IMG/VR virus record: IMGVR_UViG_3300025536_000006
Strand: one strand, 5' to 3'
Length of the DNA: 37,750 bases
From: a virus
Position numbers and translations under genes: made by a program. Below the pieces are notes generated by a model. The model was given only the letters and a program-made list of their open reading frames with translations. It made no database searches and was not told the origin of the DNA. Shown in pieces: positions 11,399 to 29,227 of this stretch; positions within the stretch are counted from its first letter, which is position 1, and every line of letters starts with the position of its first letter.

Positions 11399-11917
11399 AT
11401 GCCGGCTCCTAAAGGAAACAACTTCAATCCAAAAGGTAGACCACTAGCTGATATCGATTGGAACATGTTCGAACAACTTTGCCATATTCAGTGCACTTTA
11501 GGCGAAATGGCAGGTTTTCTTAGAGTTAATAAAGATACTTTATCAGATAGAGCGAAACTACATTATAAAGAAGATTATTCCGTCGTTTATAAAAGGTTTA
11601 GTGAAGGTGGTAAATGTAGTTTAAGAAGATCACAATTTAAACTAGCACAAAAGAATGCTTCAATGGGCATTTGGCTTGGCAAACAGTATCTAGACCAAAA
11701 AGATCACGAATCAGAAACCGACAAGACAGCTCAAATGAATCCTCATCTTGACATCGTGCATCAAGTGCTTGCTGAAAATGCTATTCTAAAGGAAAAGATA
11801 AATGCCATTGAGTCAAAAGCAAATTCAGAGCTATCAGGAAGCGACTCACAGGTTCAACATATGGGTGGGAGCAGTGAGGTCGGGCAAGACCCACTCCAGC
11901 ATCCTCAAGCTTTCTGA
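11399..11917 (+). CDS. terS: Terminase small subunit
   Basis: N-terminal KGRP...HTH-like segment, then NASMGIWLGKQYLDQKD, typical of HTH-type TerS. It lies directly upstream of TerL and overlaps it by 116 nt. Confidence 0.65.
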   Translation: MPAPKGNNFNPKGRPLADIDWNMFEQLCHIQCTLGEMAGFLRVNKDTLSDRAKLHYKEDYSVVYKRFSEGGKCSLRRSQFKLAQKNASMGIWLGKQYLDQKDHESETDKTAQMNPHLDIVHQVLAENAILKEKINAIESKANSELSGSDSQVQHMGGSSEVGQDPLQHPQAF

Positions 11918-13082
11918 ACGTCTTAAAAATGGGCCTCCTGGTGATGCGATGATCATCGGTGTAAACCGATCGACTATCCAGCGTAACATTGTAAATCCGC
12001 TTTACAAATTGCAGGACTTCCCTGTCCCATCTGAAAAATGTAACCATGTAAAGCTATACGGAAGGAATGTCTACTTCATAGGCGCTCCTGATATCAGCGC
12101 GGTTACGACTATCCAAGGTTCAACTTTAGCAATCGCCTATGTTGATGAAGCTACCTGTATACCTGAGCCCTTCTGGAAGATGCTAGAAACTCGGCTTAGT
12201 GTGCCAGGAGCCCAGCTTTTTGCTACCTGCAACCCAGAGGGGCCAGCACACTGGCTGAAAAAGCAGTATATCGACAGGAAAGAGCATGATCTGATCTATT
12301 GGAATTTCCAATTGGACGACAATCCTAGCTTGGATGAGGCATATAAGACGGCTCTCAAGACTTCTTTCTCTGGCATGTATTACAAGCGCTACATTCTAGG
12401 CGAATGGGCTTTAGCTTTCGGTGCTATATGGGATAGCTTCGATGACTACAATCTCTATGAACACCCCATGTCTAATCCCAACTACTATATCTGTGGGATA
12501 GACTATGGAACAACGAATGCAACAGCCGCCGTTTTATGTGCTATCACGCCTAAGCAATTTCCTCAAATACGAATAGAATCAGAGTATTACTACGATTCTG
12601 TAAAGCGAGGAAGATCGAAGACAGATGCAGAGCTTGTCAGGGATATAAAGGACTTCCTTGGCTTTAGGAATGTATCTGCCGTCTATGTAGACCCAGCAGC
12701 AGCGAGCCTTAAGATAGCTCTACGTCAAGAAAACATTCCAGTTGTAGACGCTAACAATGATGTACTACTAGGCATCAAAACTGTCTCGAAATTCATAGCT
12801 GGTAAAAACATCGTCATTCACAAAAGTTGTACCAATCTTATCGAGCAGATTCAATCGTATGCCTGGGACCCTAAAGCTGCTGATAGGGGCGAGGATAAGC
12901 CAATTAAAATAAATGATCATATTTGCGACGCGTTACGCTATAGTATTTGCTCAGCTTTTCCGAGAGGAGATTTCGGCTCGCCTGATGAGCATTTATCTAT
13001 AGAGCAAATACGTCGAAACATTTATGGCGATCAGTTTTCTGCGTTGGGTGAATTTGCTGGTGGTAATGGAGAATATCTGTAG
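11802..13082 (+). CDS. terL: Terminase large subunit (PBSX/Terminase_3-like)
   Basis: Walker A in NIWVGAVRSGKTH near the N terminus, a Walker B-like IAYVDEA, and C-terminal nuclease-type acidic motifs (GIDYG, NDHICDALRY). Confidence 0.9.
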   Translation: MPLSQKQIQSYQEATHRFNIWVGAVRSGKTHSSILKLSERLKNGPPGDAMIIGVNRSTIQRNIVNPLYKLQDFPVPSEKCNHVKLYGRNVYFIGAPDISAVTTIQGSTLAIAYVDEATCIPEPFWKMLETRLSVPGAQLFATCNPEGPAHWLKKQYIDRKEHDLIYWNFQLDDNPSLDEAYKTALKTSFSGMYYKRYILGEWALAFGAIWDSFDDYNLYEHPMSNPNYYICGIDYGTTNATAAVLCAITPKQFPQIRIESEYYYDSVKRGRSKTDAELVRDIKDFLGFRNVSAVYVDPAAASLKIALRQENIPVVDANNDVLLGIKTVSKFIAGKNIVIHKSCTNLIEQIQSYAWDPKAADRGEDKPIKINDHICDALRYSICSAFPRGDFGSPDEHLSIEQIRRNIYGDQFSALGEFAGGNGEYL

Positions 13083-13140: not shown

Positions 13141-13824
13141 ATGAAAATCTGTCAATCATGCCATCAAGAAAATAAGTCAAACTACGTCAATTTATGCCAA
13201 TCTTGCTACAACAAGAGATGGTTTGCCAAGTTACCATTGAGATATTGTGCTAATTGCTCAAAGGAATATAAGAATTTCGGCAAGCACTGCTTTACATGTG
13301 CTAAAAAAATTAGAGAAGCTAAGCAACCATTAACACCATGTTCTGTATGTCAGCGGACGAGCGTAAAGATCAAAAATAAAACCAAGATACTCTGTAGTAA
13401 ATGCGAAAGGATAAGAAAAGAAGAAGAAATCCCAGGATATAGAGAGAATAGAATTCTTTACAATCGTATTTCCCATAGAAAATATCGCGGTCAAGAACCT
13501 CATGGGCCTCTTAAGCGTAAACCTCCTGGAGATGGTCATGTAAATAAAGATGGATATAAGATCATTACAAAAGTAGGTCATCCGAATGCCAATTCAGATA
13601 AAGGAGCAATCCCAGAACATATTTTTATCATGAGCGAACATTTAAAAAGACCTCTTAAGAAAGGGGAGAGTGTACATCATAAAAATGGTATAAGACACGA
13701 TAATCGAATAGAAAATCTTGAGTTATGGCACAAAGGACAACCTTCGGGGCAGAGAGTTGAAGATAAGATTAGATATTTTAAAGAATTTCTCGTAGATTAT
13801 GGATATATAATTATTGATCCTTGA
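13141..13824 (+). CDS. HNH endonuclease with an array of about six CxxC zinc knuckles
   Basis: SVHHKNGIRHDNRIENLELWH is the HNH core. The N-terminal half is a series of CxxC pairs. It is inserted between TerL and the portal gene. Confidence 0.85.
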   Translation: MKICQSCHQENKSNYVNLCQSCYNKRWFAKLPLRYCANCSKEYKNFGKHCFTCAKKIREAKQPLTPCSVCQRTSVKIKNKTKILCSKCERIRKEEEIPGYRENRILYNRISHRKYRGQEPHGPLKRKPPGDGHVNKDGYKIITKVGHPNANSDKGAIPEHIFIMSEHLKRPLKKGESVHHKNGIRHDNRIENLELWHKGQPSGQRVEDKIRYFKEFLVDYGYIIIDP

Positions 13825-13832
13825 GGCATTGG

Positions 13833-15878
13833 ATGGGCAGCTACGAAAATTCTAATGGAGGATATTCGCTTGGGGGATATATAGATGGAAATGACGTAGA
13901 TGCTAAAAATATAAAACAGATGATGTCTCATTTCTATGAGTCTAGTTATCCCCAAAACGCATCCTATTGGCAACAAGGCAGCATTGACAAGCGATTCAAA
14001 GCCGGAGATCAGTCATTATGGTCGATGATCTATGGCGACAACAACTACTATCAAGCCCGTAGGTTCTTCTTCAACTTGATACGGCGCCATATCAATATGA
14101 TCTGTGGGTATCAGCGTAAGAATCGTAAATCTACCATTACCCTTCCTAATTTTGAAGGCGATCAGTTATCCGATGAATTCAATGCAGTTCTCAAGTGGAG
14201 TGAAGAAAGAGATGGCTTCCAAGAGTATCTTTCGCAAGCTTTTGAAGGAAGTTGTGACACTGGCATGTCCCTTCTTCATCTTTACCCTGATTATACTCTT
14301 GATCCTGTCAGCGGGGATCTATTTACTGATCAAGTTGCTTACAATAATTTTCTGATCGATCCGTATTTCCGCAAGATGGATCTTACAGACTGCTCATTTG
14401 TCTGGAGGAGGCGTTGGGTCAATCAGGAAGCCGCTAAGGCTCTTCTTCCTGGTCATGCTAAGGAAATTGCCAAGATGCGTCCAAGCGGTCTTAAAGATGG
14501 CAGATTCCCTCTCCAAGCAGAGCTGCTCAATATGGCAACCAATCAGCTCTTTGCCTATGACGAATTCCATTACCGAACATCACGAGAGGCTACCATTGTC
14601 TTAGATCCCAAAACAGGGGAATCTATGCTATGGGAAGAAGATGAAGAAGACAGCGCGGATATGATGGAGCGCACGCTTGCTCAGCAGCCATGGCTAGTCA
14701 TTAAGAAAACTCAGATTCCTACTGTTAAACTTTGCATTTGTTTGGGAGGGAAACCGCTTTACCATGGGCAAAATCTTCTGGGGATTGATTCTTATCCTTT
14801 TATTCCTTCTCTGTGTTATCACGAGCCAGATATTCAGTCTTATGCTTGGCGTGTTCAAGGCATCATTCGAAACTTACGTGATAGTCAGTATCTTTATAAC
14901 ATGAGAAAAGTTATCGAAATGGATATACTCCAATCTCAGATTAACTCTGGATGGATTTATCCGGTCGATGCCGTTGTTGACCCTAAATCTTTTAGACAAT
15001 CAGGACAGGGCTTCCTTGTTCCTCTTAAAGCAGGGCACTTACCAAATGAGATTCAACGCGTCGAGGCAGCAGCTTTGCCTCAATCAATTATGGAGTTATC
15101 CCGTAGCCTCGCAGAAGATATTACCAAAATATCGGGAGTCAACGAAGAGCTACTCGGAGCAGCCACGGATGACAAATCTGGTATACTATCCATGTTGCGT
15201 CAAGGTGCTGGGCTCACGACTCTGCAAACTATCTTCGATAAGCTCGATTATACCCAACGCCTCTATGGTAAGATTCGTCTCCAAGCAATCCGAAAGAACT
15301 TTAGCAAGGGTAAGATCAGTAGCATACTTGGCCATGAACCCGATCCGAGATTCTTCACAAGTCATTCTCTCAAATATTCCGTCACAGTTGAAGAAGGAAA
15401 TTATTCAGCTACTCAAAGACAGATGGAGCTACAACAACTCTTGCACTTCAGAGAACTGGGGATGAATGTAGCTGATAAGACTATCTGGCGAGCTGCATTT
15501 CTTACCAATAAGAAACAAGCTGAGCAAGACTCTGCGGAGATGGCAGAGCAGCAATCCCAGCAACAGCAAGCGCAAGCTGAGCAACAAGAGAAGGCTGAGA
15601 ACGCCAAAGTTATGGCAGCCTATGCAAAATCTAGAGCTGATATGGCCCGCGAGAAAGACCTAGTGGCCTCAGCTCAAGAGAGACTTGCTAAGATCAATGA
15701 AATTCAATCCAACACCGAACATAAGAACACAGAAGCGGATCTAAATCTCGTTAAGATGATGATTGAACTTGAGGATATGGATTTTGCTAATTTCAAAAAT
15801 AGCTTTGAAATGGCGCAATCGATAAAATTAGCAAATGAGCAAGAAAAAACAGCTCAAGCACAAACTCAATTAGCCTAA
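13833..15878 (+). CDS. Portal protein
   Basis: 681 aa. It lies downstream of TerL, with only the HNH gene (13141..13824) between them. GAGG RBS before the ATG at 13833 (the track uses TTG 13821). The Q/A/E-rich coiled-coil C terminus is reminiscent of portal barrel extensions. Confidence 0.7.
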   Translation: MGSYENSNGGYSLGGYIDGNDVDAKNIKQMMSHFYESSYPQNASYWQQGSIDKRFKAGDQSLWSMIYGDNNYYQARRFFFNLIRRHINMICGYQRKNRKSTITLPNFEGDQLSDEFNAVLKWSEERDGFQEYLSQAFEGSCDTGMSLLHLYPDYTLDPVSGDLFTDQVAYNNFLIDPYFRKMDLTDCSFVWRRRWVNQEAAKALLPGHAKEIAKMRPSGLKDGRFPLQAELLNMATNQLFAYDEFHYRTSREATIVLDPKTGESMLWEEDEEDSADMMERTLAQQPWLVIKKTQIPTVKLCICLGGKPLYHGQNLLGIDSYPFIPSLCYHEPDIQSYAWRVQGIIRNLRDSQYLYNMRKVIEMDILQSQINSGWIYPVDAVVDPKSFRQSGQGFLVPLKAGHLPNEIQRVEAAALPQSIMELSRSLAEDITKISGVNEELLGAATDDKSGILSMLRQGAGLTTLQTIFDKLDYTQRLYGKIRLQAIRKNFSKGKISSILGHEPDPRFFTSHSLKYSVTVEEGNYSATQRQMELQQLLHFRELGMNVADKTIWRAAFLTNKKQAEQDSAEMAEQQSQQQQAQAEQQEKAENAKVMAAYAKSRADMAREKDLVASAQERLAKINEIQSNTEHKNTEADLNLVKMMIELEDMDFANFKNSFEMAQSIKLANEQEKTAQAQTQLA

Positions 15879-17942: not shown

Positions 17943-17993
17943 TTGAGCCCCTTTGTCCTCTTGTCATTAAATATTTGATTCGTTATGTTGAGG

Positions 17994-18025
17994 TCAGCGT
18001 AACATAAGATTCGCTATCTTAACCC
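17994..18025 (+). promoter_or_regulatory. Conserved box TCAGCGTAACA-N6-TCGCTATCTT, copy A (upstream of the capsid gene)
   Basis: A near-identical box occurs at 30865..30895 (TCAGCGTAACA-N5-TCGCTATCTT). It contains a -10-like TATCTT with no good -35. Both copies are followed by CTTAGGTTC(A/G)AA(T/C)ATG. Confidence 0.5.
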
Positions 18026-18115
18026 ATGGCAGACATATAGGGAATCGCCAACCTAGGCAGTAATTAGTTTTTTTCGCCAAAAACGCCAAAACTAAAACTT
18101 AACTTAGGTTCAAAT

Positions 18116-19072
18116 ATGTCATCTGGGATCACCAACATTAACAACATGGCTCCAGAGCTACCTTTGCAGCTTAGCGAAGATCTGCTCTCTACGCCCATGT
18201 TCAACCTCATTCACAGTTTCGGCGCGGATTTACATTATGCCGAATCACATATTGGGCGAAATATCCGTATGTCCCGATATGAAAGACTCTCCACAAATGG
18301 CGGCCAACTCGATGGTTCTGGTATTGATCCAGCTCCTGAAGTTGTCGTCCGTTCTGATATCGACGCTAAAGTTGAAATCTACGCCAAAACCGTAGTCATC
18401 AACGAGCAAGTTGTATTATGGGAAAACGACAAAGTTCTCACTAAATTCACAGCTCTTCTCGGGCAGTGGCTACGTGAGAAAGAAGATCTTCTGATGCGCG
18501 ATCTTTACGCTTCATCTGTGAGCTACATCAATGCCACAGGCGGGGTAAACGGGGATCAGCCAAGTGAAATTTCTCGTAATGACATCAACAACATTGAGCG
18601 TATCTTGCTTGGCAATGATGCACGCACAATGCTAGAAACCATCGAAGCTCAGAACAAATTCGGTACAGCGCCAACTCGCGATGCCTTCATTGCTCTTGCT
18701 TCGACTGATATCACTCCAGACCTTCAAAACGTTCAAGGCGTACTGCTCAAAAACGCATACCCAATGCAAGAAGGACTGAGACCAGAAGAATACTGTTCAG
18801 TAAGCCGCTTCCGATTCTTTGTCAGCTCAAAAGCTGCTAAGACACCAGGCGCATCTTTGACAGGAGCCACAGTCTATACAATTCCTATGTATGGGCTTGA
18901 AGCTGCAACAAAAGTTGAACAGAACAACTATAGCGCACTCTTAGGGTACAGACCTCCTTATGTTGTGTCTAGCGTTGCCCAAAACAGCCAATTGTATGCC
19001 AAGTTCGCGATCGGTCGAGCAATCACCAATCAGAACTGGATCTCTGGGCTTAACGTAACACAAAGACTGTAA
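18116..19072 (+). CDS. Major capsid protein (HK97 fold, resembling the N4-gp56-type family)
   Basis: GRNIRMSRYERL...GQLDGSGIDPAPE...IDAKVEIYAKTVVINEQV...LLGQWLREKEDLLMRDLY follows the remembered pattern for this capsid family. It lies after the scaffold gene. Confidence 0.8.
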   Translation: MSSGITNINNMAPELPLQLSEDLLSTPMFNLIHSFGADLHYAESHIGRNIRMSRYERLSTNGGQLDGSGIDPAPEVVVRSDIDAKVEIYAKTVVINEQVVLWENDKVLTKFTALLGQWLREKEDLLMRDLYASSVSYINATGGVNGDQPSEISRNDINNIERILLGNDARTMLETIEAQNKFGTAPTRDAFIALASTDITPDLQNVQGVLLKNAYPMQEGLRPEEYCSVSRFRFFVSSKAAKTPGASLTGATVYTIPMYGLEAATKVEQNNYSALLGYRPPYVVSSVAQNSQLYAKFAIGRAITNQNWISGLNVTQRL

Positions 19073-19082
19073 GGAGTTATAT

Positions 19083-20126
19083 ATGCCTTTTACTATTCTT
19101 GATGGTGGTTCATTCACATCGACTGCGGCAGGAGTTAAAATTCCTCTTCCCAGTTCTGCTGATTATTTTAAAATCGTTAACGTAACGCAAATGGCAGCAG
19201 CCGGAACTACCTGCGTTGCTGGCGAATGGTTCGGCTCTAAATTTGGAGCTGGGGCTACCGCTGCTAACGATGGTATCCGCTGGAGAAAGGCTGCATCAAA
19301 TGCAATCTTAATTGATACATTTGCAACAGCTACAGCTACCAACGGCTTTACATATGTCACTACTGCTCCTGTGGTAGAGGCGCAAGCTGCAAATGCTATT
19401 ACAGGTATCACAGCAGCAAACCCAGCGGTTGTTACCCAGACAAATACCTATGCCAATGGTGATCTAGTACGAATTTACAATACTACTGGTGATCTTACAA
19501 TTGGCGGCATGGTATTCCAGATTTCATCTGCATCTGGAGCAGGCTACACGTTGCTTGGTCTTGCAAACGTTGCTGGTAACGGTCTTGCCGCTGCAACAGC
19601 AGGTAATACACGACGTATTTCGACGTTTTCAGCAGTGGAACCAGAATATCTTTATATCACCAACATTAGCCGTGCGACCCAGATGGTTGTTAGCGTTAGC
19701 ATTGATCCTGCTAACTATTATGTTGTGGGTAACAAGGTTCACTTAAGCGTTCCTGCATCGTTTGGAATGACTGAAGCAAACCAACTTACCGGAACAATCC
19801 TGGCACTCAATGCCGTGGCTGCATCCGGAAGCATTGGTGCTTACAATATGACACTGGATATCGATTCAACCGCATTTACTGCTTTTGCATTCCCAGCTTC
19901 TGCATTGTCGCCAACAACTCGCTTGTTTGCAACTTTAGCACCTGCCGGATCAAAAACAGCATATGATCCAGTAACACTGGTTCAAACAGGTTATGAATTT
20001 AACCTCACACCTTTCCGTACAGGTGAGTTTGTTCCTTATATGCTCATTGGCGGCGGCGGGGCAGGTAATGCTTCGGGTGCTGCAAATGACATCATCAACT
20101 GGGCTTCTTATAAATTCGAAACCTAA
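19083..20126 (+). CDS. Virion structural protein with two FCCH-like beta-barrel modules (decoration or head-fibre candidate)
   Basis: AGGAG RBS directly after the capsid gene. Modules ITGITAANPAVVTQTNTYANGDLVRIYN... and YITNISRATQMVVSV...LSVPASFGMTEANQLTGTI...LDIDSTAFTAF. Confidence 0.55.
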   Translation: MPFTILDGGSFTSTAAGVKIPLPSSADYFKIVNVTQMAAAGTTCVAGEWFGSKFGAGATAANDGIRWRKAASNAILIDTFATATATNGFTYVTTAPVVEAQAANAITGITAANPAVVTQTNTYANGDLVRIYNTTGDLTIGGMVFQISSASGAGYTLLGLANVAGNGLAAATAGNTRRISTFSAVEPEYLYITNISRATQMVVSVSIDPANYYVVGNKVHLSVPASFGMTEANQLTGTILALNAVAASGSIGAYNMTLDIDSTAFTAFAFPASALSPTTRLFATLAPAGSKTAYDPVTLVQTGYEFNLTPFRTGEFVPYMLIGGGGAGNASGAANDIINWASYKFET

Positions 20127-20137
20127 GAATTTATGTC

Positions 20138-20174
20138 CCCATGAGTCGGCTACAATGTAGCCGACTCTCATGGG
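20138..20174 (+). promoter_or_regulatory. Long imperfect hairpin spanning the intergenic gap and the ATG of 20170
   Basis: CCCATGA-GTCGGCTAC-aat-GTAGCCGAC-tc-TCATGGG. That is about 15 paired positions with a 2-nt bulge. The right arm contains the start codon at 20170-20172. Confidence 0.55.
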
Positions 20175-20577
20175 ATATAAATTAAGCAAGTACATGGCAA
20201 ACAATATTTACTTACCCCCGACTCCTGTTATCCCAGGGATGCTTCTCATCACTGCTATTACCAATGCCTATCCTATGGTCGTGACCTTCACAAATTCTAT
20301 CTACAATACGTATGTTTTAGGGCAACTTGTTACGCTTACCGTTCCTCCTCCCTACCGAATGATCCAGGCAAATGAGCTTACAGGAAAGATCATAGCTATC
20401 AATGGGTCTACATTTTCATTAGATATCGATTCTAGAAACTTCGATACGTTTGTAATCCCTAATCCCGCATCCATTCCTACTCCTAGTCAGCCCGCGTCCC
20501 TTGCGCCAGGAGGCAGCAGAAATAACTACAACGTAACACTTGAGCCCTTTCAATCACTAAATAACCAAGGAAACTGA
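20170..20577 (+). CDS. Structural protein paralogous to the C-terminal half of 19083..20126
   Basis: ITAITNAYPMVVTF...LTVPPPYRMIQANELTGKIIAINGSTFSLDIDSRNFDTF aligns with the second module of the preceding gene. The start is uncertain (20170 or 20194). Confidence 0.55.
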   Translation: MGYKLSKYMANNIYLPPTPVIPGMLLITAITNAYPMVVTFTNSIYNTYVLGQLVTLTVPPPYRMIQANELTGKIIAINGSTFSLDIDSRNFDTFVIPNPASIPTPSQPASLAPGGSRNNYNVTLEPFQSLNNQGN

Positions 20578-20578
20578 T

Positions 20579-20986
20579 ATGTCCACACTCATTCAAGTAA
20601 CTGCATCAGGAGAAGAACACGGCTTGATTAAAAGACTTGCCAATAGCGTTCCTTTCGATGACTTCAAACATATGTCACCTACTACAAAAGCAAAGGCTGA
20701 GAAACTGAAGAAAGAAGAAAGCAAGATGGTCAAAGCTAAATATCTCAACTCACGCGGTAGGCACGAAAGGCTTACAAAACCCTATTGTAGATGGTCTGGC
20801 GACAATATCCAGATCTGGCATTTCATCCCAGGACATGTCTACGAAGTGCCCATGGGCCTTATCAACGAAGTGAATGCCGTAAAAACAGTTATCCGCGAGG
20901 GTAAATGCGATGAGAATGGAGACAATCCATTGGCTAAAGACGAGATCGATGAGCCCTTACACCAGTTTGTAGCGGCAAATTTTTAA
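20579..20986 (+). CDS. Hypothetical virion-module protein (135 aa)
   Basis: ORF track. TGATATG coupling to the upstream gene. Confidence 0.55.
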   Translation: MSTLIQVTASGEEHGLIKRLANSVPFDDFKHMSPTTKAKAEKLKKEESKMVKAKYLNSRGRHERLTKPYCRWSGDNIQIWHFIPGHVYEVPMGLINEVNAVKTVIREGKCDENGDNPLAKDEIDEPLHQFVAANF

Positions 20987-20999
20987 ATATTGAGGGAAG

Positions 21000-22277
21000 A
21001 TGACATTAGCTCCTGCAAATTCCACATATGCCTACATTGAAACCAAGGTAAGAAGGCTCACTGCGTCATCCAGTGAGCAATCTTTGCGCTCTGCATCGAT
21101 CCAGGAGTATGTCAATAATTTCTATAATCAGAATTTTCCCAATTCGATAAAGACCGACCAAATGCGGTCGGTCTATACGTTCTATACTGCACCAAACATC
21201 GATCGATATCCTGTAAATGTGAACTACAATCAGGGATTCCGCTCTCCTGTATATGTAGATGGCATTCAAGGTTCATTCTTTAAGGATAGAGATCAATTTT
21301 TCCTTATGTGGCCAAGATGGCCTACTCTATTTCAGCAATCTCCTACAACCCTTACAGGCTCTATCACGGCAGCTACAAATGCTAATCCATGTCAGATTAC
21401 GAGCGCAAACCATGGTTTGATTACGGGTAGCGTAATATCGATCACAGGTGTTGTAGGTATGATTCAGCTTAATGGCAATACATATACGATCACTGTAGTT
21501 GATGCAAATAATTTTACACTAAATGGGATTGATTCGACGGCTTTTGGTGTGTACATATCAGATGGAACTTGGACAGCCAATAATCAGTTTTTCTCTTTTA
21601 CAATCGGCTCAGTGCCATTCTTAAGCCAGCAAGTAACCATAGGCTCCGTTGATACAAACGGAGGGGCAATCAGAATCAGTGACGATGGTAATGGCAATCT
21701 TCTCTACGACGTTCCTAACCCCATTATTTCGGTTCCTCCAGCCCTTACAAATGTTCCAGGAATGAAAAATTTAAATACTGGAAATCCTGGCGATCTGGTT
21801 CAAACACTCATTGGCACTGTAAACTACGTAACGGGGCAATTTACCTTTACTCTTCCTTCAGGAGTATCAGTAGGGACTGGACAAATTCTACGCATTTTCG
21901 TCTCTCAGTATACGACTGGAAGACCTTATTCACTGCTTTTCTGGAATAATGAGATCACTATCCGACCAGTGCCTAAATGGACTCATAAGATTGAAGTTGA
22001 AACCTACCTTACTCCTGTTCAGTTCATGAGCTATTCTAATAATCCTATCATGAACCAATGGGCTAAATACATAGCCTATGGAGCCGCTATCGATATCTTG
22101 ACTGATAGACAAGACATGGATGGGGTCAATAATTTGATGGATGCCTTCAAGTATGAAGAAGGACTTGTTTTAGAAAGACAAGGCGCAGAAGAGATAGGAC
22201 AGAGGAATACCACCATCTTTTCGTCATCTGTACAGGGACAAGGAAATTATTGGGGAAGCTGGGGGAACTGGTATTAG
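21000..22277 (+). CDS. Virion structural protein with an inserted FCCH-like module (adaptor or tail tubular A candidate, by position only)
   Basis: GAGGGAAG RBS. The module ITAATNANPCQITSANHGLITGSVISITGVVGMIQLNGNTYTITVVDANNFTLNGIDSTAFGVY spans about aa 120-191. Confidence 0.5.
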   Translation: MTLAPANSTYAYIETKVRRLTASSSEQSLRSASIQEYVNNFYNQNFPNSIKTDQMRSVYTFYTAPNIDRYPVNVNYNQGFRSPVYVDGIQGSFFKDRDQFFLMWPRWPTLFQQSPTTLTGSITAATNANPCQITSANHGLITGSVISITGVVGMIQLNGNTYTITVVDANNFTLNGIDSTAFGVYISDGTWTANNQFFSFTIGSVPFLSQQVTIGSVDTNGGAIRISDDGNGNLLYDVPNPIISVPPALTNVPGMKNLNTGNPGDLVQTLIGTVNYVTGQFTFTLPSGVSVGTGQILRIFVSQYTTGRPYSLLFWNNEITIRPVPKWTHKIEVETYLTPVQFMSYSNNPIMNQWAKYIAYGAAIDILTDRQDMDGVNNLMDAFKYEEGLVLERQGAEEIGQRNTTIFSSSVQGQGNYWGSWGNWY

Positions 22278-24832
22278 TGTCATATAAACCGCTTTACATT
22301 CGCAAAATGGAGACGGGGCTTGTGCAAAGCAGGCAGGATTTCATCTTGCCTGATGATGCCTATCCTGTTTTAGAGAATGCTTATGTATGGCGTGAAAGAA
22401 TCAAAAGACGTCAGGGACTAGATCTTGTAGGAAGATTGCGTAGAGTCTTAACAGGGCTATCTCTTGGCCTTTCTGGGGCCGATCCTTGGACATTTACCAT
22501 CTGGTCAACTCTAGCACCTCCTATCGTTCCTGAAGCTACTGCTCAGATTGAGCCTGGAAGCGTAGTGATCGATATAGGAGGAGTTATACTAATCGATCAA
22601 GGTGATGGAACTTTAGCTACTGCTCCTCCTAGTGGGGTTACAGGGACTATAAACTATCAAACAGGTAGCGTGACAATTATGGGAGCTGGAGCTGGAGTGG
22701 CAACAACCATCAGCTTCAATTATTTCCCTGGCCTTCCTGTGATGGGGCTTCGTTCTAGAGAGCTGAATTCAATCAATATCGAGCAACTTATCGCCTTCGA
22801 TACGTTCTATGCCTACAGATTCGTAGGAACAGGTTGGCAAGAATTTATTCCAGGAACTACCTGGAGCGGGACATTACCTGATGCTGATTCGAATTTCTTC
22901 TGGTCTACAAACTATTGGGTGGGCGATGGTAACCAAAAGATATTTTGGGTCACGAACTTTTCAGGAATCACAGGCGATCCTATTCGCTATACCAACGGCA
23001 CTACCTGGATAAATTTTGCCCCTACGATCAATGCAGCAGGTGAGGTTCTAGCTCAATGTCTCGCCATGTTGCCATTTAGAGGAAGGCTTGTAACATTCAA
23101 TACATTGGAAGGCGCGAATTTAGCCACTTCCGTTGCTTATACCAATCGAATACGATGGGCAGCAATCGGAACGCCATTTAGCACACCAAGTGCGATTGTA
23201 ACGCCTGTAAATGCTAATGCATGGCGTGATGACATACGAGGACAAGGAGGATTTCTTGACATCCCGACTTCTGAAAGTATCGTTGCAGTTGGCTTCGTCC
23301 GTGATAATTTGGTTATTTACTGTGAGCGCAGTACTTGGCAGCTGCGTTATACTGGGCGCTCTATTGCTCCTTTCCAGATTGAAAAAGTTAATAGTGAGCT
23401 CGGCTCAGAAAGTACTTTCAGTGCTGTCCAGTTCGACACATCACTTATCGGAATAGGAGACAAAGGAGTTGTTGAATGCGACAGCTTCAAGTCTGAAAGG
23501 ATCGATATCAAGATTCCCGATCTTGTCTTTGAATTCAAAAATGAAAGCGAAGGAACAAAACGAGTCCATGGCATTAGAGATTTTCAAGAAAGACTTGCTT
23601 ATTGGACTTACGTTTACAATCCTGCATCGACTCCAGGTCAGAAGTTTCCCAACCGTCGATTAGTCTATAACTATGAGAATGACTCCTGGGCTATCTTTAC
23701 AGACTCTTTGACAGCATTAGGAACTTACCAAGAAGCCGTAGCGCGTACATGGATAACAGCCGATTCCACATGGAATAAAGCTAACTTTCCATGGCTAGAT
23801 GTTCCAGCTCAATTTCCTTTCATTGTAGGAGGAAATCAGCAAGGATACGTTCATAAACTTTCGTCTAATCTGTCTCCAAAAACTACTAATGATGTTACTC
23901 TTTTCATCACCAACATCGTAGGAGCTACCACTACGCCTACGATCGTCACAAGCCCTAACCATAATCTTGTGACGGGTCAGGTGATCACCATTCATGATTT
24001 ACCATCTACTGATCCTTATGCAGCTAGTCTAAACAGTCCTAGAACTGGTGCTATTACAGGAGCAACACAAGCCAACCCATGTCAGATCACAAGTACTAAC
24101 CATGGTCTTTTGACAGGTTCTAGAATCGATATCTCAGGTGTGACCGGAATGGTAGAACTCAATGGATTGAGCTATATCATTACGGTAACGGGCGTAAATA
24201 CATTTACTCTAGATGGCATTGACTCTACAAATTTCACTGCCTACGCAGGCGCTGGGACTTGGAGTTACACTAATGCTTTTGCCGTATTCATTGATCCTAC
24301 CAGCAGCCCTTTAGATACCTTCCAGCTTTGGAAGTATTCACCTGTTACACTCGATTTTACCATTCCTCAAACCGATGCTCCAGGAACATATCAAGGCGGA
24401 GGACAAATCGCCGTTAGAGACGGTTTTAGTATCGTTAGCAAGAAATTCAACTTCCTAGAGCAAGGGCAAAACATTCAATTAGGATATATAGATCTTTTGA
24501 CTGATACCACAGAAAGTGGGGCGATCACTCTCAATGTCTATCTCAACTACAATAACAGCAGCCCAGTCAATATTTTGCCAGAGAATGTTAACCCTGTAAC
24601 GTTTTTGCCAGATCCCTTTTTCAATACTACAGTCAATACGTTTCAAGGAGCAGGAATGCCTAGCATAAAGAATAACCAAAGAGTCTTTTGTTCAATGTGG
24701 GGGCATTTTGTCACCCTGCAATGGACTCTATCCAAGGCACAACTTATCAGCGTTGAGCAAGAATCAGACGTACAAATCGATTATCAAATTTTGTGGATAA
24801 GACCAGCAGGAACACAACTCAATAATATTTAG
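22277..24832 (+). CDS. Large tail protein, nozzle / tail tubular B-like (tentative)
   Basis: About 850 aa. The N terminus (KMETGLVQSRQDFILPDDA...ENAYVW...KRRQG) loosely parallels the T7 gp12 N terminus. It carries one full and one partial FCCH-like module. Possible starts are GTG 22277, TTG 22250 or ATG 22307. Confidence 0.45.
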   Translation: MSYKPLYIRKMETGLVQSRQDFILPDDAYPVLENAYVWRERIKRRQGLDLVGRLRRVLTGLSLGLSGADPWTFTIWSTLAPPIVPEATAQIEPGSVVIDIGGVILIDQGDGTLATAPPSGVTGTINYQTGSVTIMGAGAGVATTISFNYFPGLPVMGLRSRELNSINIEQLIAFDTFYAYRFVGTGWQEFIPGTTWSGTLPDADSNFFWSTNYWVGDGNQKIFWVTNFSGITGDPIRYTNGTTWINFAPTINAAGEVLAQCLAMLPFRGRLVTFNTLEGANLATSVAYTNRIRWAAIGTPFSTPSAIVTPVNANAWRDDIRGQGGFLDIPTSESIVAVGFVRDNLVIYCERSTWQLRYTGRSIAPFQIEKVNSELGSESTFSAVQFDTSLIGIGDKGVVECDSFKSERIDIKIPDLVFEFKNESEGTKRVHGIRDFQERLAYWTYVYNPASTPGQKFPNRRLVYNYENDSWAIFTDSLTALGTYQEAVARTWITADSTWNKANFPWLDVPAQFPFIVGGNQQGYVHKLSSNLSPKTTNDVTLFITNIVGATTTPTIVTSPNHNLVTGQVITIHDLPSTDPYAASLNSPRTGAITGATQANPCQITSTNHGLLTGSRIDISGVTGMVELNGLSYIITVTGVNTFTLDGIDSTNFTAYAGAGTWSYTNAFAVFIDPTSSPLDTFQLWKYSPVTLDFTIPQTDAPGTYQGGGQIAVRDGFSIVSKKFNFLEQGQNIQLGYIDLLTDTTESGAITLNVYLNYNNSSPVNILPENVNPVTFLPDPFFNTTVNTFQGAGMPSIKNNQRVFCSMWGHFVTLQWTLSKAQLISVEQESDVQIDYQILWIRPAGTQLNNI

Positions 24833-24839
24833 GTAAATT

Positions 24840-25433
24840 ATGGCATCATATATTCGTAACCAACCCGTGGCCACAGACGACTTAAGCGTTAGTGCTCCGA
24901 TCTTATCAGGTAATACCAACAAAGCCGATGATAGCTTTGGGATCGATCACTTCCAGTTCTCTGATCTGACTACAAACAATGGATTCCATAAGAAAGTCAC
25001 CTTACCAGGGAGTCTAGCTGCTCCTACTCCAGCGGCTGGATTTGGGGATATGTATGCCGTTACTACAGCATCTATCACAAAGCCCATATGGAGAAGAGAT
25101 GGTCTTGCTGGCACACCTGAATTCCCTATGCTACCTATTAAAGCTTTTGGATCATATTCTAGTACTGGAGTAGCTATCGGAACTCCCTCAAATATATTTT
25201 CATGTACAAATGTAAGCACAGGAAGATACGATTTTGTGCTTTCAGCGAATGTTCTTGATCCTGCCGGAGCCGCGAATTATTCCATATTTGCTGCATCTAA
25301 TAAAGCAGGCAGCAATCCAGCGACTATTTTAATGGGCATTCCTCTAACAGCAACAACTTTTCAGGTTTTTAGCCGAGATCATGCGAATGTTTTAACAGAT
25401 TCTGAATTCAGCGTTATGGTTCTTCAATTATGA
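24840..25433 (+). CDS. Virion protein (197 aa), function unknown
   Basis: ORF track. Preceded by TAGGTAAATTATGG, the same junction as at 25907-25920. Confidence 0.55.
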   Translation: MASYIRNQPVATDDLSVSAPILSGNTNKADDSFGIDHFQFSDLTTNNGFHKKVTLPGSLAAPTPAAGFGDMYAVTTASITKPIWRRDGLAGTPEFPMLPIKAFGSYSSTGVAIGTPSNIFSCTNVSTGRYDFVLSANVLDPAGAANYSIFAASNKAGSNPATILMGIPLTATTFQVFSRDHANVLTDSEFSVMVLQL

Positions 25434-25909
25434 CCTCACAAACCTCACAAGAATTCGAATCCTTCGTTCCGGTCTACGATACCGTTCCTGAGAAATGGGA
25501 AGACGGAAGAGCATTCCTTGTTGAGCATTTGAAGAAGATCTCCAATGCCGTCAATATTCGTACAATCGGATGGCTGCTTGATGAAGAGCTTCTCAGTGGG
25601 CAAGCGTTCATTCCTGGAGCAAATACACCAGCAGGTAATACAGGTTCCAATTTTCGTCAGGTTCTAAGAAAAGTTGTGAATGTAGGCCCATTAGTAGCTG
25701 GCGTTAATGCAGGAGTAAACCATGGAGTCACATTCGATGCAAATTTCACGCTTATAGATCTATGGGTAGCAGGAACGGATTCTGTAGGCTTTACAGCAAG
25801 AGTAATAAGTGGCAATGATGTAATCATGAACGCAACACAGTTGGTCATTACATCACCTCAAGCATTTGATAGGGCATATGCCTTCATTGAATATACACAG
25901 GAATTATAG
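25430..25909 (+). CDS. Virion protein (159 aa), function unknown
   Basis: ORF track. ATGA coupling to the upstream gene. Confidence 0.55.
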   Translation: MTSQTSQEFESFVPVYDTVPEKWEDGRAFLVEHLKKISNAVNIRTIGWLLDEELLSGQAFIPGANTPAGNTGSNFRQVLRKVVNVGPLVAGVNAGVNHGVTFDANFTLIDLWVAGTDSVGFTARVISGNDVIMNATQLVITSPQAFDRAYAFIEYTQEL

Positions 25910-25916
25910 GTAAATT

Positions 25917-26537
25917 ATGGGACTTTTCAAAGAGATAGGTAAATTTTTCCGAGGAACTCCTGGGAAGTATCAACAAAGATCTACGCTAAATCCAGAGCAA
26001 CAAGGATTAGCCCAACAATATTACAACTCTATTCGTGGCCAAGGAGCAGGCGGAGCGTTTGGAGATGTTGCGGATTATTATCGCGGTAATTTGAGTGATA
26101 ACCCAGCCGATTTCCAAGCTTTTGCTGCTCCAGAAATGCGAAGGTTCAATGAGCAAATCATCCCTGGTCTTTCCGAACAATTTGCTGGGATGGGCTCAGG
26201 AGGTCTTTCAAGCAGTGGCTTTCGCAACGCAGCAGTTGGAGCAGGTACGGATCTTAGCGAGCGTCTTGGAGCGATTAGAGCGCAACTAAGACAGCAAAGT
26301 GCTCAAGGATTGCAAGGCTTCGCTCAAGGTGGCTTAAACCCATCATTCAATGAAAATCTTTATACAGCAGGACAGCCAGGTTTTATCGATACTGCTATGC
26401 AAGGACTGGGTCAGGCTGGCACAGGAGGCTTTGGAGGATTAGGCGGTTTCGTAGGAGGAGCAGCAAGCAATTGGTTGAAAAATAGACGAGCCAATACTTC
26501 ACAGATTTATGGCAATCAACAAGGTCAGGGAGGTTAA
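25917..26537 (+). CDS. Gly/Gln-rich protein (internal virion or ejection-protein candidate)
   Basis: Low-complexity G/Q/A-rich sequence (GQGAGGAFG, GMGSGGLSSSG, GTGGFGGLGGFVGG). It lies downstream of the tail genes. Confidence 0.4.
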   Translation: MGLFKEIGKFFRGTPGKYQQRSTLNPEQQGLAQQYYNSIRGQGAGGAFGDVADYYRGNLSDNPADFQAFAAPEMRRFNEQIIPGLSEQFAGMGSGGLSSSGFRNAAVGAGTDLSERLGAIRAQLRQQSAQGLQGFAQGGLNPSFNENLYTAGQPGFIDTAMQGLGQAGTGGFGGLGGFVGGAASNWLKNRRANTSQIYGNQQGQGG

Positions 26538-26538
26538 G

Positions 26539-27813
26539 GTGGTACAAATCATAAATGACCCATACGCCGGGAATGTATTCGGTCGTATAGGCAAAGGTCT
26601 CGGTCAAGGTTTAAGCGAGCAGCTTCCTAAAGAGGTAGAACGCACGAGACTTGCTTCTGGATTAAAGAAACTCAGTGAAAAATCTAAAACTGAAAAATTA
26701 TCTCCTTTAGATATATTTACGGAAGCGGCTGGACTTCCTGGTATTACTCCTCAACATCTTTATACGATGGCTCCAATACTTAATCAGCAAATACAAAAAC
26801 AAAATTTCTTAGCACGAGGCGAGCAAGGAGGAGCAGGATCTCCTAATATTGAGAAACCAAATCTAGGAACAGAAGGTCAAAATAGACATTCAGCATCAGG
26901 TGTTCCTAATCTAGCAGCTCCTGAAAGCGGTTTTGTAAGTCCCTCAGATATTGCTAATTATAAAGAAACCGTTTTGCAAGAACCTGGCTTCAATCAGATT
27001 AATTCATTAGCCAAAGATTATTTAGATCAGGGTATTACTCAAGATCCCCAAGAAGCAACTTCGTTAGCTGCGAAGGAATTGGCTCAAAATCGAGCAGCGC
27101 AAGCAACAAAAATTCAAGCCTTTAAGGATGATTTTGGAGGTGAAAATGGGCGATTTGCTTTACAATTGCAGTCGGGCCCGCTTGGTCAAAAAAGCTTTAA
27201 AGCTGTGGCCGGAGAGATCCAACAAGCTCTCTTAGATCAGGGAGAATATAGAGTTGGAGCATTAGGCATGAATCCTGCTGCGGTTGCTCTTGAAATGAGC
27301 AATATCGCTACAGAACTAGGGAAAACTGTAACTCAAACGAATGCAACCGGATCTTTTTGGAATCAATTTGCAAGTAAGCAATCAAAAATCACAGATCTGA
27401 GAGAACAAAAGAAGGAATTTGAAAAATATGGGTTTGGGGAGCAATTTAATGATATCGCATCAGCAGCTTTAGGGATTACGCCTCTAGAAGCTGCAAATAT
27501 ATTGTCTCCTCTAGAAAATAAGTCTATATCTGACATGATTGCAAAAACCAAGAAAATCTCTCAGAAATCAACGCAAAATAATATTGATACAACGACTTTA
27601 GACAAAATCATTCGATCGATCACACCTAAAGACAATCTTTTTTCGATCGAATATATGTTGAGAAATAAGCAACTAGATATTCAACAATTTAAGAAAAGAG
27701 TGCAGGAACTTGTAAATGCCAAGGAAATCGCTCTTACGCCAGAACAAAAAAGACAAATGAAAAGAACCGTAAGTGAATCATTTCTTGGTGATTTATTATT
27801 TGAAGCACTTTAA
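26539..27813 (+). CDS. Internal virion protein candidate (about 424 aa)
   Basis: GTG 26539 follows GGGAGG by 6 nt. The track start, ATG 26509, would overlap the upstream gene by 29 nt. No enzymatic motif recognised. Confidence 0.4.
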   Translation: MVQIINDPYAGNVFGRIGKGLGQGLSEQLPKEVERTRLASGLKKLSEKSKTEKLSPLDIFTEAAGLPGITPQHLYTMAPILNQQIQKQNFLARGEQGGAGSPNIEKPNLGTEGQNRHSASGVPNLAAPESGFVSPSDIANYKETVLQEPGFNQINSLAKDYLDQGITQDPQEATSLAAKELAQNRAAQATKIQAFKDDFGGENGRFALQLQSGPLGQKSFKAVAGEIQQALLDQGEYRVGALGMNPAAVALEMSNIATELGKTVTQTNATGSFWNQFASKQSKITDLREQKKEFEKYGFGEQFNDIASAALGITPLEAANILSPLENKSISDMIAKTKKISQKSTQNNIDTTTLDKIIRSITPKDNLFSIEYMLRNKQLDIQQFKKRVQELVNAKEIALTPEQKRQMKRTVSESFLGDLLFEAL

Positions 27814-27822
27814 GGAGAAAAT

Positions 27823-28395
27823 ATGGCTTCTGCTATTTTTGGAGTTTTAAAATATTTGCCAGCTTCTTTGGCTAGGAAAGCTCTTGCGAAAGCAAACCCT
27901 GGTTTTGAGAATTATTTCTCTAAAGCTTTGAGTTATGGAGTAGATGCTAATCGCGCATTGGATTATCTCATTGATAAATTTGAAAACAGTGCTCAAAAAG
28001 ATTTTAAACAACAGCAAGAATCTAGAGCTGCCGAAGGAACATTAAGACCTGACGAAATGGCAACTAGAAGTCAGGTGGCAAATGCGGCTATTCCAGGAAA
28101 AATATTGAAAGGAGGAGCATCTGCACTTTTAGGAGGAGCATTAGGAATAGGCTCTGAAAGAAGGCCATCCCAAGAACAAGAACCTACATTAACCGATGAA
28201 GAAAAAAGACAAGCTACTCTCCAAGCATTTAATGAAAGATTACGTTCTAAAAAACCTAAATCTGAACTTTCTAGAGAAGAATTGACCCGTCAATTCGAAG
28301 AATCTCAACAAGGCGGTCAAGGTAAAGCAGCTTTACTGTCGACCATGCAGCAGCTTACCGAAGCGCTAAGGCAAATGAGAGGCCAAGGTGGATGA
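27823..28395 (+). CDS. Hypothetical virion-module protein (190 aa)
   Basis: ORF track with an AAGGAG RBS. Charged and helical. Confidence 0.5.
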   Translation: MASAIFGVLKYLPASLARKALAKANPGFENYFSKALSYGVDANRALDYLIDKFENSAQKDFKQQQESRAAEGTLRPDEMATRSQVANAAIPGKILKGGASALLGGALGIGSERRPSQEQEPTLTDEEKRQATLQAFNERLRSKKPKSELSREELTRQFEESQQGGQGKAALLSTMQQLTEALRQMRGQGG

Positions 28396-29029
28396 ACTTC
28401 TGCGATTGCTTATTCAATTCATAGATCAAATCGAAGGATCATTCGATGAATTGGATGATGCGGAAGCTCAAGAAGTAGCTAACTTCTTAACCGAAACCAT
28501 GAACTTTCTCATGGAAGGTCAAGCAGGTCAAGAACCTGCTCAAGGAGAGCCGCAAGTTGAAGCTCCAATACCTGTAGGAGCCGAACTACTTTGGATTCTA
28601 GCTGGCGGCCAAGAAGATGCCTTTGTCAATTATCTTCGTACTTATCCAGACCCTGCTCTCAACTCTATCTTGCAGAATCCAGAGATGCTCCAATCAACAT
28701 TGGATCGTCTCAATAGGACAATGCCTCAAGGTCTCAGAGGTCAAGAAGGAGGCATTCAACAAGCGCCTATCGATTCGAGTAACATCTACGGATTCAACTA
28801 CAATCCAAAGAGCGGCTCACTCCTAGTCCGATTCCAATCAGGAGCTGTTTATGGATATCAAGGCGTTCCACCTGGAGTTTTCCGCGTGTTTCAACAAGGC
28901 GCAATTCCCGCGAAGACAAAAGGCGAGAATCGTTTTGGAAAGTGGTGGCAAGGTAAGATTCCATCACTGGGGGCGGCCTTTTATGAATTGATTCGTCAAG
29001 GTGGCTATCCGTATCAACGCATTTCATAA
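28388..29029 (+). CDS. KTSC-domain protein (213 aa)
   Basis: IDSSNIYGFNYNPKSGSLLVRFQSGAVYGYQGVPPGVFRVFQQG matches the KTSC domain pattern (S.I..v.Y.....L.V.F..G..Y.Y..VP..v...). Confidence 0.65.
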   Translation: MDELLRLLIQFIDQIEGSFDELDDAEAQEVANFLTETMNFLMEGQAGQEPAQGEPQVEAPIPVGAELLWILAGGQEDAFVNYLRTYPDPALNSILQNPEMLQSTLDRLNRTMPQGLRGQEGGIQQAPIDSSNIYGFNYNPKSGSLLVRFQSGAVYGYQGVPPGVFRVFQQGAIPAKTKGENRFGKWWQGKIPSLGAAFYELIRQGGYPYQRIS

Positions 29030-29227
29030 GCCGAGTCCTTCATGCGCTTTCATCATTTTCACATCGAAAAACATCGTATCCTGATTCTTTTTCATGATCT
29101 TAAGAGTTGTTGCGATCTCGTAAAAATGTTCATGCATGAATTCTGATTGCCCACGATATTGAGCTATAGCCATATAAGTATTCATGACAGTCAAAATCAT
29201 TAAAATAACCATATAAAACTTTTTCAT
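29024..29227 (-). CDS. Small membrane protein (67 aa)
   Basis: N-terminal TM helix FYMVILMILTVMNTYMAIA. Last gene of the leftward small-membrane-protein chain. Confidence 0.55.
   Translation of the reverse strand: MKKFYMVILMILTVMNTYMAIAQYRGQSEFMHEHFYEIATTLKIMKKNQDTMFFDVKMMKAHEGLGL

Follow-up and report, generated by a model that had tools for sequence, protein, structure and literature searches.

The genome of an uncultured tailed phage, recorded in IMG/VR as IMGVR_UViG_3300025536_000006 (37,750 nucleotides; "the window" denotes this whole stretch of DNA), carries a nearly identical sequence box ahead of its major capsid gene and ahead of a 791-aa open reading frame (ORF) that we call the fibre gene, following an earlier annotation. 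We found that this box is probably not a promoter; comparison with related genomes suggests that both mRNAs, capsid and fibre, would begin with it, as their first ~25 nt, and shows that it is unit 1 of an array of small RNA structures. The comparison establishes the stems of these units, their pseudoknot pairing, their strand specificity, their position relative to a promoter and their restriction to one phage family. As a whole, the data are likely best explained by a promoter-proximal, cis-acting structured leader RNA that would gate late translation.

18116-19072, + strand: major head protein (capsid) gene, phrog_1357
30962-33337, + strand: 791-aa ORF, the fibre gene of the earlier annotation

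Neither of the family searches used (Pfam, PHROGs) identified the 791-aa ORF as a fibre gene.

A two-block box ahead of the capsid and fibre genes

The first-pass annotation of this DNA had described a two-block box at two sites and nowhere else in the window, and our searches bear this out. The box reads TCAGCGTAACA-N6-TCGCTATCTT in copy A (17994-18020, + strand) and TCAGCGTAACA-N5-TCGCTATCTT in copy B (30865-30890, + strand). With both strands searched, the window held two occurrences of the pattern and no more, and none of 100 dinucleotide-preserving shuffles contained it. Since either block taken singly, with 1-2 mismatches allowed, was no more frequent than expected by chance, the signal resides in the paired arrangement of the blocks. 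The distances previously given from the box ends to the start codons, 91 nt for the capsid gene (18116) and 67 nt for the fibre gene (30962), are correct. Direct alignment of the two copies revealed a third common block, TAGGCnGTA, which is the beginning of the next unit (see below), as well as a compensatory change in the box flanks, where copy A has T-A and copy B has C-G as the outer pair of the stem; in sequence, box B copies box A, its loop being one base longer. A common start context had also been proposed for the two genes. The 10-mer ACTTAGGTTC is indeed found at both start regions and only there in the window (18102-18111 and 30947-30956), but the longer formula was one base off, copy B reading GAACTATG and not GAA(T/C)ATG.

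The presence of the box upstream of related capsid genes had been suggested as a check. As a string the box is not kept, with no exact match in the viral collection and a fuzzy match in only one (L001) of 80 relatives, and therefore structure was examined instead; the base-pairing, as described below, is kept.

Covarying hairpin units in the leaders of relatives

In the viral collection, 270 relatives of the capsid gene were found. About 150 related phage loci of metagenomic origin were compared, drawn from 80 capsid-centred loci and 80 longer loci centred on the 860-aa structural gene. Their capsid leaders contain two to three tandem units built on one plan, and each box of the window corresponds to unit 1 of such an array. 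A unit starts with a 5' trinucleotide (AGC, GGC or GAC), usually followed by a T, then an invariant G, two A/T bases and a spacer of 2-8 nt; the 3' part consists of a stem of 3-7 bp whose sequence is free to vary, a loop of 7 nt with the form Y-U-C-G-Y-Y-A and the complementary arm. The G after the trinucleotide and the loop residues U2, C3, G4 and A7 are invariant in all units, at any position in the array. The first unit starts with AGC in 30 of 39 leaders, and later units start with GGC or GAC.

The dominant loops are TTCGCTA, CTCGTCA, TTCGCCA, CTCGCCA, TTCGTCA and TTCGCAA; such heptamers are abundant on the + strand and missing from the top of the minus-strand list. In 70 non-redundant leaders, stems of at least 4 bp flanked 74 of the 135 loop heptamers, compared to 5.9 expected (maximum 13 in 200 partner shuffles). 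A definition of the unit by string only yielded 113 candidates with stems on the + strand and 3 of 431 on the minus strand; this definition was too permissive (563 candidates, mostly coding-sequence noise) and was kept solely for the strand contrast, being superseded by the leader-restricted test. RNAalifold, applied to a structure-naive MAFFT alignment of 25 whole leaders, recovered the hairpins of unit 1 and unit 3, with compensatory changes at 9 of 10 pairs. When all three hairpins were evaluated on the same alignment, 82.7% pairing was obtained compared to 61.1% after shuffling, and the covariation was 0.609 compared to 0.224 for shuffled alignments (0/500) and at most 0.157 for slid controls, many of the pairs being G-U. 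Together, these counts and alignments argue that the stems are real, regardless of the search method.

Predicted pairing of the 5' trinucleotide with the loop

The 5' trinucleotide of the unit is the Watson-Crick complement of loop positions 4-6, a pairing that was not selected for by the scans. The trinucleotide/loop classes were GGC/GCC (25 units), GAC/GTC (22), AGC/GCT (17) and TGC/GCA (4), whereas the mismatched combinations GGC/GTC and GAC/GCC were found 0 times each. In the seed alignment, the middle pair is GC in 51 units and AU in 18, and is unpaired in none; the outer pair is GC in 40, AU in 14, UA in 4, CG in 1 and something else in 10. The model-derived alignment gave a similar distribution for the middle pair (GC 33, AU 11, other 1), and in the GGT/ACC class, with loop CTCACCA, compensation is seen also at the otherwise invariant third pair. 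The covariation is thus that of an H-type pseudoknot, in which helix 1, between the trinucleotide and loop positions 4-6, shows 95% pairing and two covarying pairs, and helix 2 (the stem) covaries throughout. With the T bulged out, loop C3 could pair with the invariant G that follows the trinucleotide; unit 1 of the window lacks this T, and its AGCG pairs with CGCU without a break. These features indicate a small, compact predicted pseudoknot of ~30 nt in each unit.

The loop starts with Y-U-C-G, which fits YUNR, and its pairing partners lie 3' of the U. Loops of the YUNR U-turn type are recognition elements of antisense RNAs and of the RNAs they target (Franch et al. 1999, summarised in PMC4485353). 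The units resemble these loops in that the bases after the U pair, here with the 5' trinucleotide or the Shine-Dalgarno (SD) region, and differ in that the pairing is intramolecular, within one mRNA leader, and in the 7-nt loop with its invariant final A, which recalls an anticodon loop (positions 32-38). The loop also resembles the outline of an anticodon loop (Y32-U33-N34-37-A38), and from its sequence alone we infer a U-turn geometry.

A predicted, conserved promoter immediately upstream of each box

17961-17989, + strand: predicted sigma-70-type capsid promoter, from the consensus scan; -35 TTGTCA (17961-17966), 17-nt AT-rich spacer, -10 TATGTT (17984-17989)
30832-30860, + strand: predicted fibre promoter, from the family register; -35 TAGCAA (30832-30837), 17-nt spacer, -10 TACATT (30855-30860)

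The linkers from the -10 element to the predicted transcription start (+1) are TATGTT-GAGGTC-A17996 for the capsid gene and TACATT-GGGCTC-A30867 for the fibre gene. The fibre promoter lies under the threshold of a simple consensus scan; the capsid leader of one relative (L051) has TAGCAA-17-TATACT. As simple promoter and terminator scans performed at chance level over the late region, they were used only alongside positional conservation. For this, 36 non-redundant leaders were anchored on the first base of the first unit. A T was found at -35 in 30/36 leaders, followed by T at -34 and G at -33; further conserved positions were G at -14 (15/36), T at -12 (24/36), A at -11 (25/36) and T at -7 (29/36), and the anchor base itself (+1) was A in 27/36. 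The hexamer TAnnnT began exactly at -12 in 20/36 leaders and in no more than 3 at neighbouring offsets. The hexamers and their spacing, with 17-bp spacers in both window copies and in the register of the relatives, are those of sigma-70-type promoters, in which the -35 and -10 elements stand 16-18 bp apart and the -10 ends about 7 nt ahead of +1. We conclude that a conserved sigma-70-type promoter is predicted just upstream of each box, with +1 at the first base of unit 1. As the predicted +1 falls on the A of AGC, the transcript would begin with the box, and the prevalence of AGC in the first unit (30/39) is what is expected if this A is +1. A predicted promoter at each gene supports the earlier proposal of independent transcription starts ahead of the capsid and fibre genes, while the covarying units and the promoter register favour what had been offered there as an alternative, namely that the box is a conserved 5' leader RNA element.

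The first-pass annotation had instead read the box as an activator-dependent late promoter, with TATCTT as the -10 element, a poor -35 element and TCAGCGTAACA as a site bound by an RHH or alpha-CTD-like activator of the phage. TATCTT does fit TAnnnT, both boxes precede late structural genes, and genes for alpha-CTD-like and RHH proteins adjoin box B. However, TATCTT in the window spans loop positions 6-7 and the four bases that open the 3' arm, only 6/39 first units of relatives have TAnnnT at the equivalent place, and the better-conserved -35/-10 pair, fixed in position, lies immediately upstream. The box string, moreover, is not kept in relatives while its pairing is. No relative's locus has a homologue of the RHH gene (30484-30759) or the alpha-CTD-like gene, although units occur throughout the family, and units of the same type recur 30-60 nt downstream in the leader, which a single promoter leaves unexplained. 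A promoter inside the box is, in our judgement, extremely improbable. Readings of the box as a sigma-54, ECF-sigma or Bacteroidetes-type promoter were dropped by eye, their spacing and conserved positions not fitting.

The box can also be read at the DNA level, as an inverted repeat. In this case AAGA(T)-N-ATCTT, at +10 to +25, would be an operator that binds a dimeric repressor (e.g., RHH) and blocks both late promoters, with a role of the RNA possible besides. Overlap with +1 is typical of operators, the RHH gene is divergently placed at box B, and stem and spacer are identical in boxes A and B while stems vary freely between phages, which is the pattern of operator and repressor co-evolution. 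On the other hand, the loop is asymmetric and strand-specific, and both the trinucleotide-loop covariation and the G-U pairs would be meaningless in duplex DNA. Three different stems per leader would also require three repressors, the RHH gene is absent from the unit-bearing relatives, and in the relative L082 the stems of the first units of the capsid and fibre leaders differ. We therefore regard an operator as highly improbable and return to the reading of the box as part of a structured RNA leader.

Units in the two leaders of the window

A covariance model (R1) was built from 69 units of relatives, with the rows of the window excluded, and run on the whole window, both strands, with filters off. 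The top three matches were 18053-18086 (22 bits, E 0.002), 17993-18023 (17.8 bits) and 30897-30927 (11.2 bits, E 1.4), and all others scored at most 11 bits. When the model was run over 1.05 Mb of relatives, 52/52 matches lay on the + strand, nearly all of them in capsid leaders. From these matches, the folds and the comparison with relatives, the following units were assigned.

17996-18021, + strand: capsid unit 1 (box A), beginning at the predicted +1 A17996; second-best R1 match, structural scan and pseudoknot covariation; AGCG 17996-17999 pairs with CGCU 18012-18015 and UAAGA 18005-18009 with UCUUA 18017-18021; loop UUCGCUA 18010-18016
18028-18057, + strand: capsid unit 2, degenerate, the putative anti-start-region element; minimum free energy (MFE) fold and own-versus-permuted test; GGC-A-G-A, stem UAGG 18038-18041 with CCUA 18052-18055, loop AUCGCCA 18044-18050
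18056-18084, + strand: capsid unit 3; best R1 match in the window and RNAalifold hairpin; GGC-A-G-U-A, stem UUUU 18069-18072 with AAAA 18080-18083, loop UUCGCCA 18073-18079, the GGC complementing loop GCC
30867-30891, + strand: fibre unit 1 (box B), beginning at the predicted +1 A30867; two-block pattern; AGCG 30867-30870 pairs with CGCU 30882-30885 and CAAGA 30874-30878 with UCUUG 30887-30891; 8-nt loop AGUCGCUA
30897-30927, + strand: fibre unit 2; third-best R1 match and MFE fold; GGC-U-G-U-A, stem UACG 30909-30912 with CGUA 30921-30924, loop UUCGCCU(U)

The same cassette was found ahead of the fibre genes in five relatives (L082, L096, L098, L114 and L126). Rfam gave no gathering-level match in the window, and at E values up to 10 both leaders returned noise only (14-16 bits compared to gathering thresholds of 43-90); ARAGORN found 0 tRNA or tmRNA genes in the window. 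ToxI-like RNA repeats of a type III toxin-antitoxin system were rejected, as Tandem Repeats Finder found no array in either leader and the units share motif positions only, their stems being different.

The second unit is complementary to the translation start region

18102-18120, + strand: capsid initiation region, ACUUAGGUUC; SD UAGGU 18105-18109, AUG 18116-18118; predicted pairing with unit 2
30947-30964, + strand: fibre initiation region, ACUUAGGUUCGAACUAUG; AUG 30962-30964

The computed duplex energy of the capsid start region (-20 to +3) with its own leader was -15.9 kcal/mol on average, compared to -11.0 +/- 0.35 kcal/mol for permuted leaders (best of 30: -12.0), and other 23-mers of the same phage gave -10.1 to -12.8 kcal/mol with the leader. 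When the tested segment was slid along the mRNA, the own-specific signal was confined to -32 to +15 (peak ~-4.8 kcal/mol) and was zero through +250. The partner of the start region was the middle unit in 12 of the 13 leaders with three detected units and either unit where only two were detected; the pairing often uses both arms and the beginning of the loop, as in L062, where ATACGCCTCG pairs with CGAGGCGTAT, and in L072, where ATACCTCGCCAGTATG pairs with CATACTGTCGAGGTA. In a pseudoknot-free ensemble, the accessibility of the SD-AUG segment was 0.31 for native, 0.50 for truncated and 0.42 for chimeric leaders (55/71 leaders, p ~1e-7), and for the capsid leader of the window the corresponding P(unpaired) values were 0.26, 0.60 and 0.58.

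The MFE fold of 17996-18135 (-29.2 kcal/mol, z = -2.5) pairs two segments of unit 2 with the start region, AACCUAGG (18050-18057) with CUUAGGUU (18103-18110) and GACAUAU (18032-18038) with AUAUGUC (18114-18120). In the MFE fold of the fibre leader, the unit 2 loop GUUCGCCU (30912-30919) pairs with AGGUUCGAAC (30951-30960), and the fibre leaders of relatives show the same behaviour. An upstream segment that is complementary to, and covaries with, the SD and start region is the arrangement of an SD-sequestering leader. These results argue that unit 2 is specifically complementary to the SD and start region of its own gene, and the common start context of the capsid and fibre genes may be due to the need of the start region to pair with unit 2.

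A separate conserved segment, AACTTA(C/T), stands just upstream of the SD in many leaders (window 18093-18110) and complements GTAAG at the junction of units 2 and 3. We take it to resemble the 'epsilon' enhancer of phage T7 gene 10, which is UUAACUUUA.

Both leaders head long operons, 18116-29029 for the capsid gene and 30962-37288 for the fibre gene, and an RNA for processive antitermination, modifying RNA polymerase for read-through of these late operons, has to be weighed against translational gating. The HK022 put and lambda nut elements are promoter-proximal RNA hairpins that head long operons at two sites per genome. The tandem hairpins described here likewise lie directly downstream of two operon promoters, two sites per genome recall putL/putR and nutL/nutR, and the order of a linear motif before a hairpin whose loop is conserved is superficially like boxA plus boxB. 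However, the late operons hold no excess of intrinsic terminators (18 compared to 15.4 +/- 4.0 expected), none of them convincing between + strand genes. BoxA-like sequences (YGCTCTTWA, at most one mismatch) numbered 45 compared to 42.8 expected, with none in 17996-18115 or 30867-30961. Separate proteins bind boxA and boxB, whereas in the leaders the linear motif and the loop pair with each other, and antitermination would leave the complementarity of unit 2 to the start region unexplained. An antitermination function is thus distinctly unlikely. An RfaH ops-like reading of GGCTGTAGC was also rejected, the family consensus being GGCTGA/T followed by a variable spacer and the motif pairing with the loop.

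Distribution of the cassette

A protein-independent DNA pattern of two units was found at 45 places in the viral collection, and every stem-bearing one precedes a homologue of this capsid gene, mostly at a distance of 61-78 nt and in three loci at ~1.15 kb. In the ~1.15-kb cases the capsid gene is split, and its distal part is what tblastn matches first. Matches of the two-unit pattern outside the capsid family had no stems and are chance matches in coding DNA. As far as the two-unit pattern can tell, the cassette is specific to this uncultured phage family.

The capsid gene is split after residue ~99-117 by an insertion of 0.3-0.8 kb in three relatives (L094:4266-5961, L099:5233-6993 and L164:6001-7232), and the insertion in L094 holds a 177-aa ORF (4729-5262). 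The insertion may be an intron or a homing element.

A model of translational gating

In the model that we consider likely, a sigma-70-type promoter would start transcription at the A of AGCG, and the leader would toggle between two mutually exclusive folds that act as a translational gate. In the open state, unit 2 would be folded as hairpin plus pseudoknot and the start region would be free; in the closed state, unit 2 would be paired with the start region. The pseudoknot would be the lock that favours the open state. More tentatively, unit 1, whose first 3-4 nt are paired, may shield the 5' end of the mRNA from 5'-end-dependent decay. The gate could be set by co-transcriptional folding kinetics alone; alternatively, a protein or ligand acting in trans could recognise the conserved features of the units and set it.

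In the latter, factor-dependent version, the units would be binding sites, or aptamers, for a trans-acting phage or host protein or a small ligand, and binding would stabilise the unit fold and free the start region, much as Mu Com acts on mom mRNA (late translational activation) or as a tandem riboswitch would. We see this version as possible but doubtful; that weight comes from the invariant residues, which are the same in all units and go beyond the needs of a stabiliser or an anti-SD element. The thermodynamics of nested structures also point to a start region that is closed by default, and the promoter looks constitutive, so that late timing would need another source. The invariant residues, however, fit an intrinsic U-turn, anticodon-loop-like fold with pseudoknot as well. 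Annotation of ~40 ORFs with Pfam and PHROGs gave no RNA-binding, antiterminator, sigma-like or NusG-like candidate that is conserved next to the cassette, and no riboswitch family matched at a permissive threshold. A bolder and unlikely extension is that the units constitute an undescribed class of compact aptamer or protein-recognition module that mimics a codon-anticodon pair intramolecularly, with the U-turn loop paired to a 5' 'codon', and that in tandem would sense a phage or host factor or engage the ribosome directly to switch on capsid and fibre translation.

Several points weigh against translational gating by the leader. The pseudoknot helix has only 3-4 bp, with a single nucleotide between this helix and the 3' arm, which is a steric concern, and the folding of single units in the window is weak (~-3 kcal/mol) and no better than that of shuffles. 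The covariance model scores neither capsid unit 2 nor box B of the window above its threshold, box B being missed because of its extra loop base. Phylogenetic kinship of the sequences inflates the shuffle statistics, an effect that the own-versus-permuted contrast and the slid controls lessen and do not remove. A start-closing element is unexpected ahead of a gene whose product is required in very large quantity, so that the control could be either on or off by default. Finally, the near-identity of boxes A and B, including stems and spacer, is not accounted for by structure alone; it could reflect gene conversion, recent recombination of leaders or a common sequence-specific partner.

Comparison with known leader RNAs

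The closest documented logic is that of the maturation-gene leader of Levivirus (MS2), in which an upstream complementary sequence pairs with the SD and this pairing is delayed by a metastable hairpin (PMC4615214). Both have a 5'-terminal hairpin and a leader segment complementary to the SD, and in both the same segment is alternatively part of a local hairpin, with two exclusive folds gating ribosome binding, which for the phage studied here is the proposed model. The two differ in that the present RNA is an mRNA made by host RNA polymerase from a double-stranded DNA phage and not a replicating RNA genome, that the local hairpin is one of two to three repeated units with U-turn loop and pseudoknot, and that the gated genes would be those for major capsid and fibre rather than for a low-copy protein.

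Other leaders have parts of this arrangement. The thrS leader of E. coli contains tandem anticodon-like stem-loops and the leader of phage T4 gene 32 a 5' pseudoknot, both bound by the product of their own gene. They are like the present leaders in placing tandem anticodon-like stem-loops or a 5' pseudoknot upstream of the start region; in contrast to them, annotation gave no conserved protein partner for the present units, and the Rfam search was negative for homology. E. coli ompA and the leader of phage T7 gene 10 have 5'-terminal stem-loops that stabilise their mRNAs. There too, the structure lies at or a few nt from the (here predicted) +1 of a highly expressed late or structural mRNA, but in the phage leaders the 5' nucleotides would be held by a pseudoknot with a hairpin loop and not by a simple terminal stem, and identical unit types stand also at internal positions, where protection of the 5' end cannot be their reason. 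In comparison with put and nut, the present leaders lack boxA and a terminator excess, and their pairings differ, the linear motif being matched to its own loop and unit 2 to the start region. Leaders that sequester the SD, like stabilisers of the 5' end, are already known; for the tandem unit of U-turn loop and pseudoknot there was no match in Rfam and no description in the literature searched.

Genome and neighbouring genes

The window spans a whole tailed-phage genome, 37,623 bp in length, and has an exact 127-bp terminal direct repeat (1-127 = 37624-37750); the contig is thus a circular or terminally redundant complete genome. It encodes lambdoid-style replication genes in the early region, further tail and structural proteins, and the following genes.

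11802-13082: large terminase subunit
13821-15878: P22-type portal
29836-30255, minus strand: alpha-CTD-like protein, free-standing, of the RNA polymerase type (Pfam E 3.7e-16)
30484-30759, minus strand: RHH/HicB-like protein, adjoining box B and divergently placed

Among cultured phages, neither megablast with the capsid region nor tblastn with the capsid protein gave a match, and the best likeness of the portal is only ~23% identity. A capsid scan of species-representative genomes returned six contigs of metagenome-assembled genomes from mutually inconsistent taxa, which were treated as mis-binned phage contigs and given no weight as evidence for a host.

The alpha-CTD-like and RHH/HicB-like genes belong to a leftward island (29024-30759, minus strand) just upstream of the fibre promoter, together with two ORFs without matches. 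These leftward genes at box B had 0 homologues in the ~160 relatives' loci that carry units, and a small leftward ORF at box A is present in 10 relatives' loci. The leftward genes at the boxes thus appear to be accessory genes and not obligate partners of the units, and the island, of which none of the relatives' loci has a homologue, has the appearance of an accessory, moron-like insertion. It is in any case unusual for a phage to encode an alpha-CTD.

Two HNH endonuclease genes were found, one between terminase and portal (13141-13824) and one just after the fibre gene (33393-34010). The interior of the fibre gene (32306-32595) contains a 147-nt tandem repeat in two copies of 75% identity, corresponding to a 49-aa protein repeat. 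E1_FCCH-like beta-barrel domains (E ~1e-11) occur in the structural proteins encoded at 21000-22277, 22250-24832 and 35546-37288, and the C-terminus of the 580-aa protein has a weak Pgp3-C-like match under the Pfam threshold.

Implications for late gene expression

Late-gene control in tailed phages is usually described as transcriptional, through activators, sigma factors or antiterminators. In this uncultured ~38-kb phage family, an ordinary-looking promoter stands before the major capsid gene, and often before the fibre gene, and is followed by a covarying RNA array, one unit of which appears tailored to the ribosome-binding site of its own gene. For annotation, the lesson is that a box repeated ahead of late genes can mark where an mRNA begins instead of being a promoter, and the ~30-nt pseudoknot module may find use as a design element. 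If the units do act as modules that mimic a codon-anticodon pair, late timing in this family would be set at translation by a new RNA fold, from promoters that look constitutive. Overall, if the gating model holds, the arrays would represent a new family of structured RNA absent from Rfam, and these phages would place the protein they need most abundantly under translational gating.

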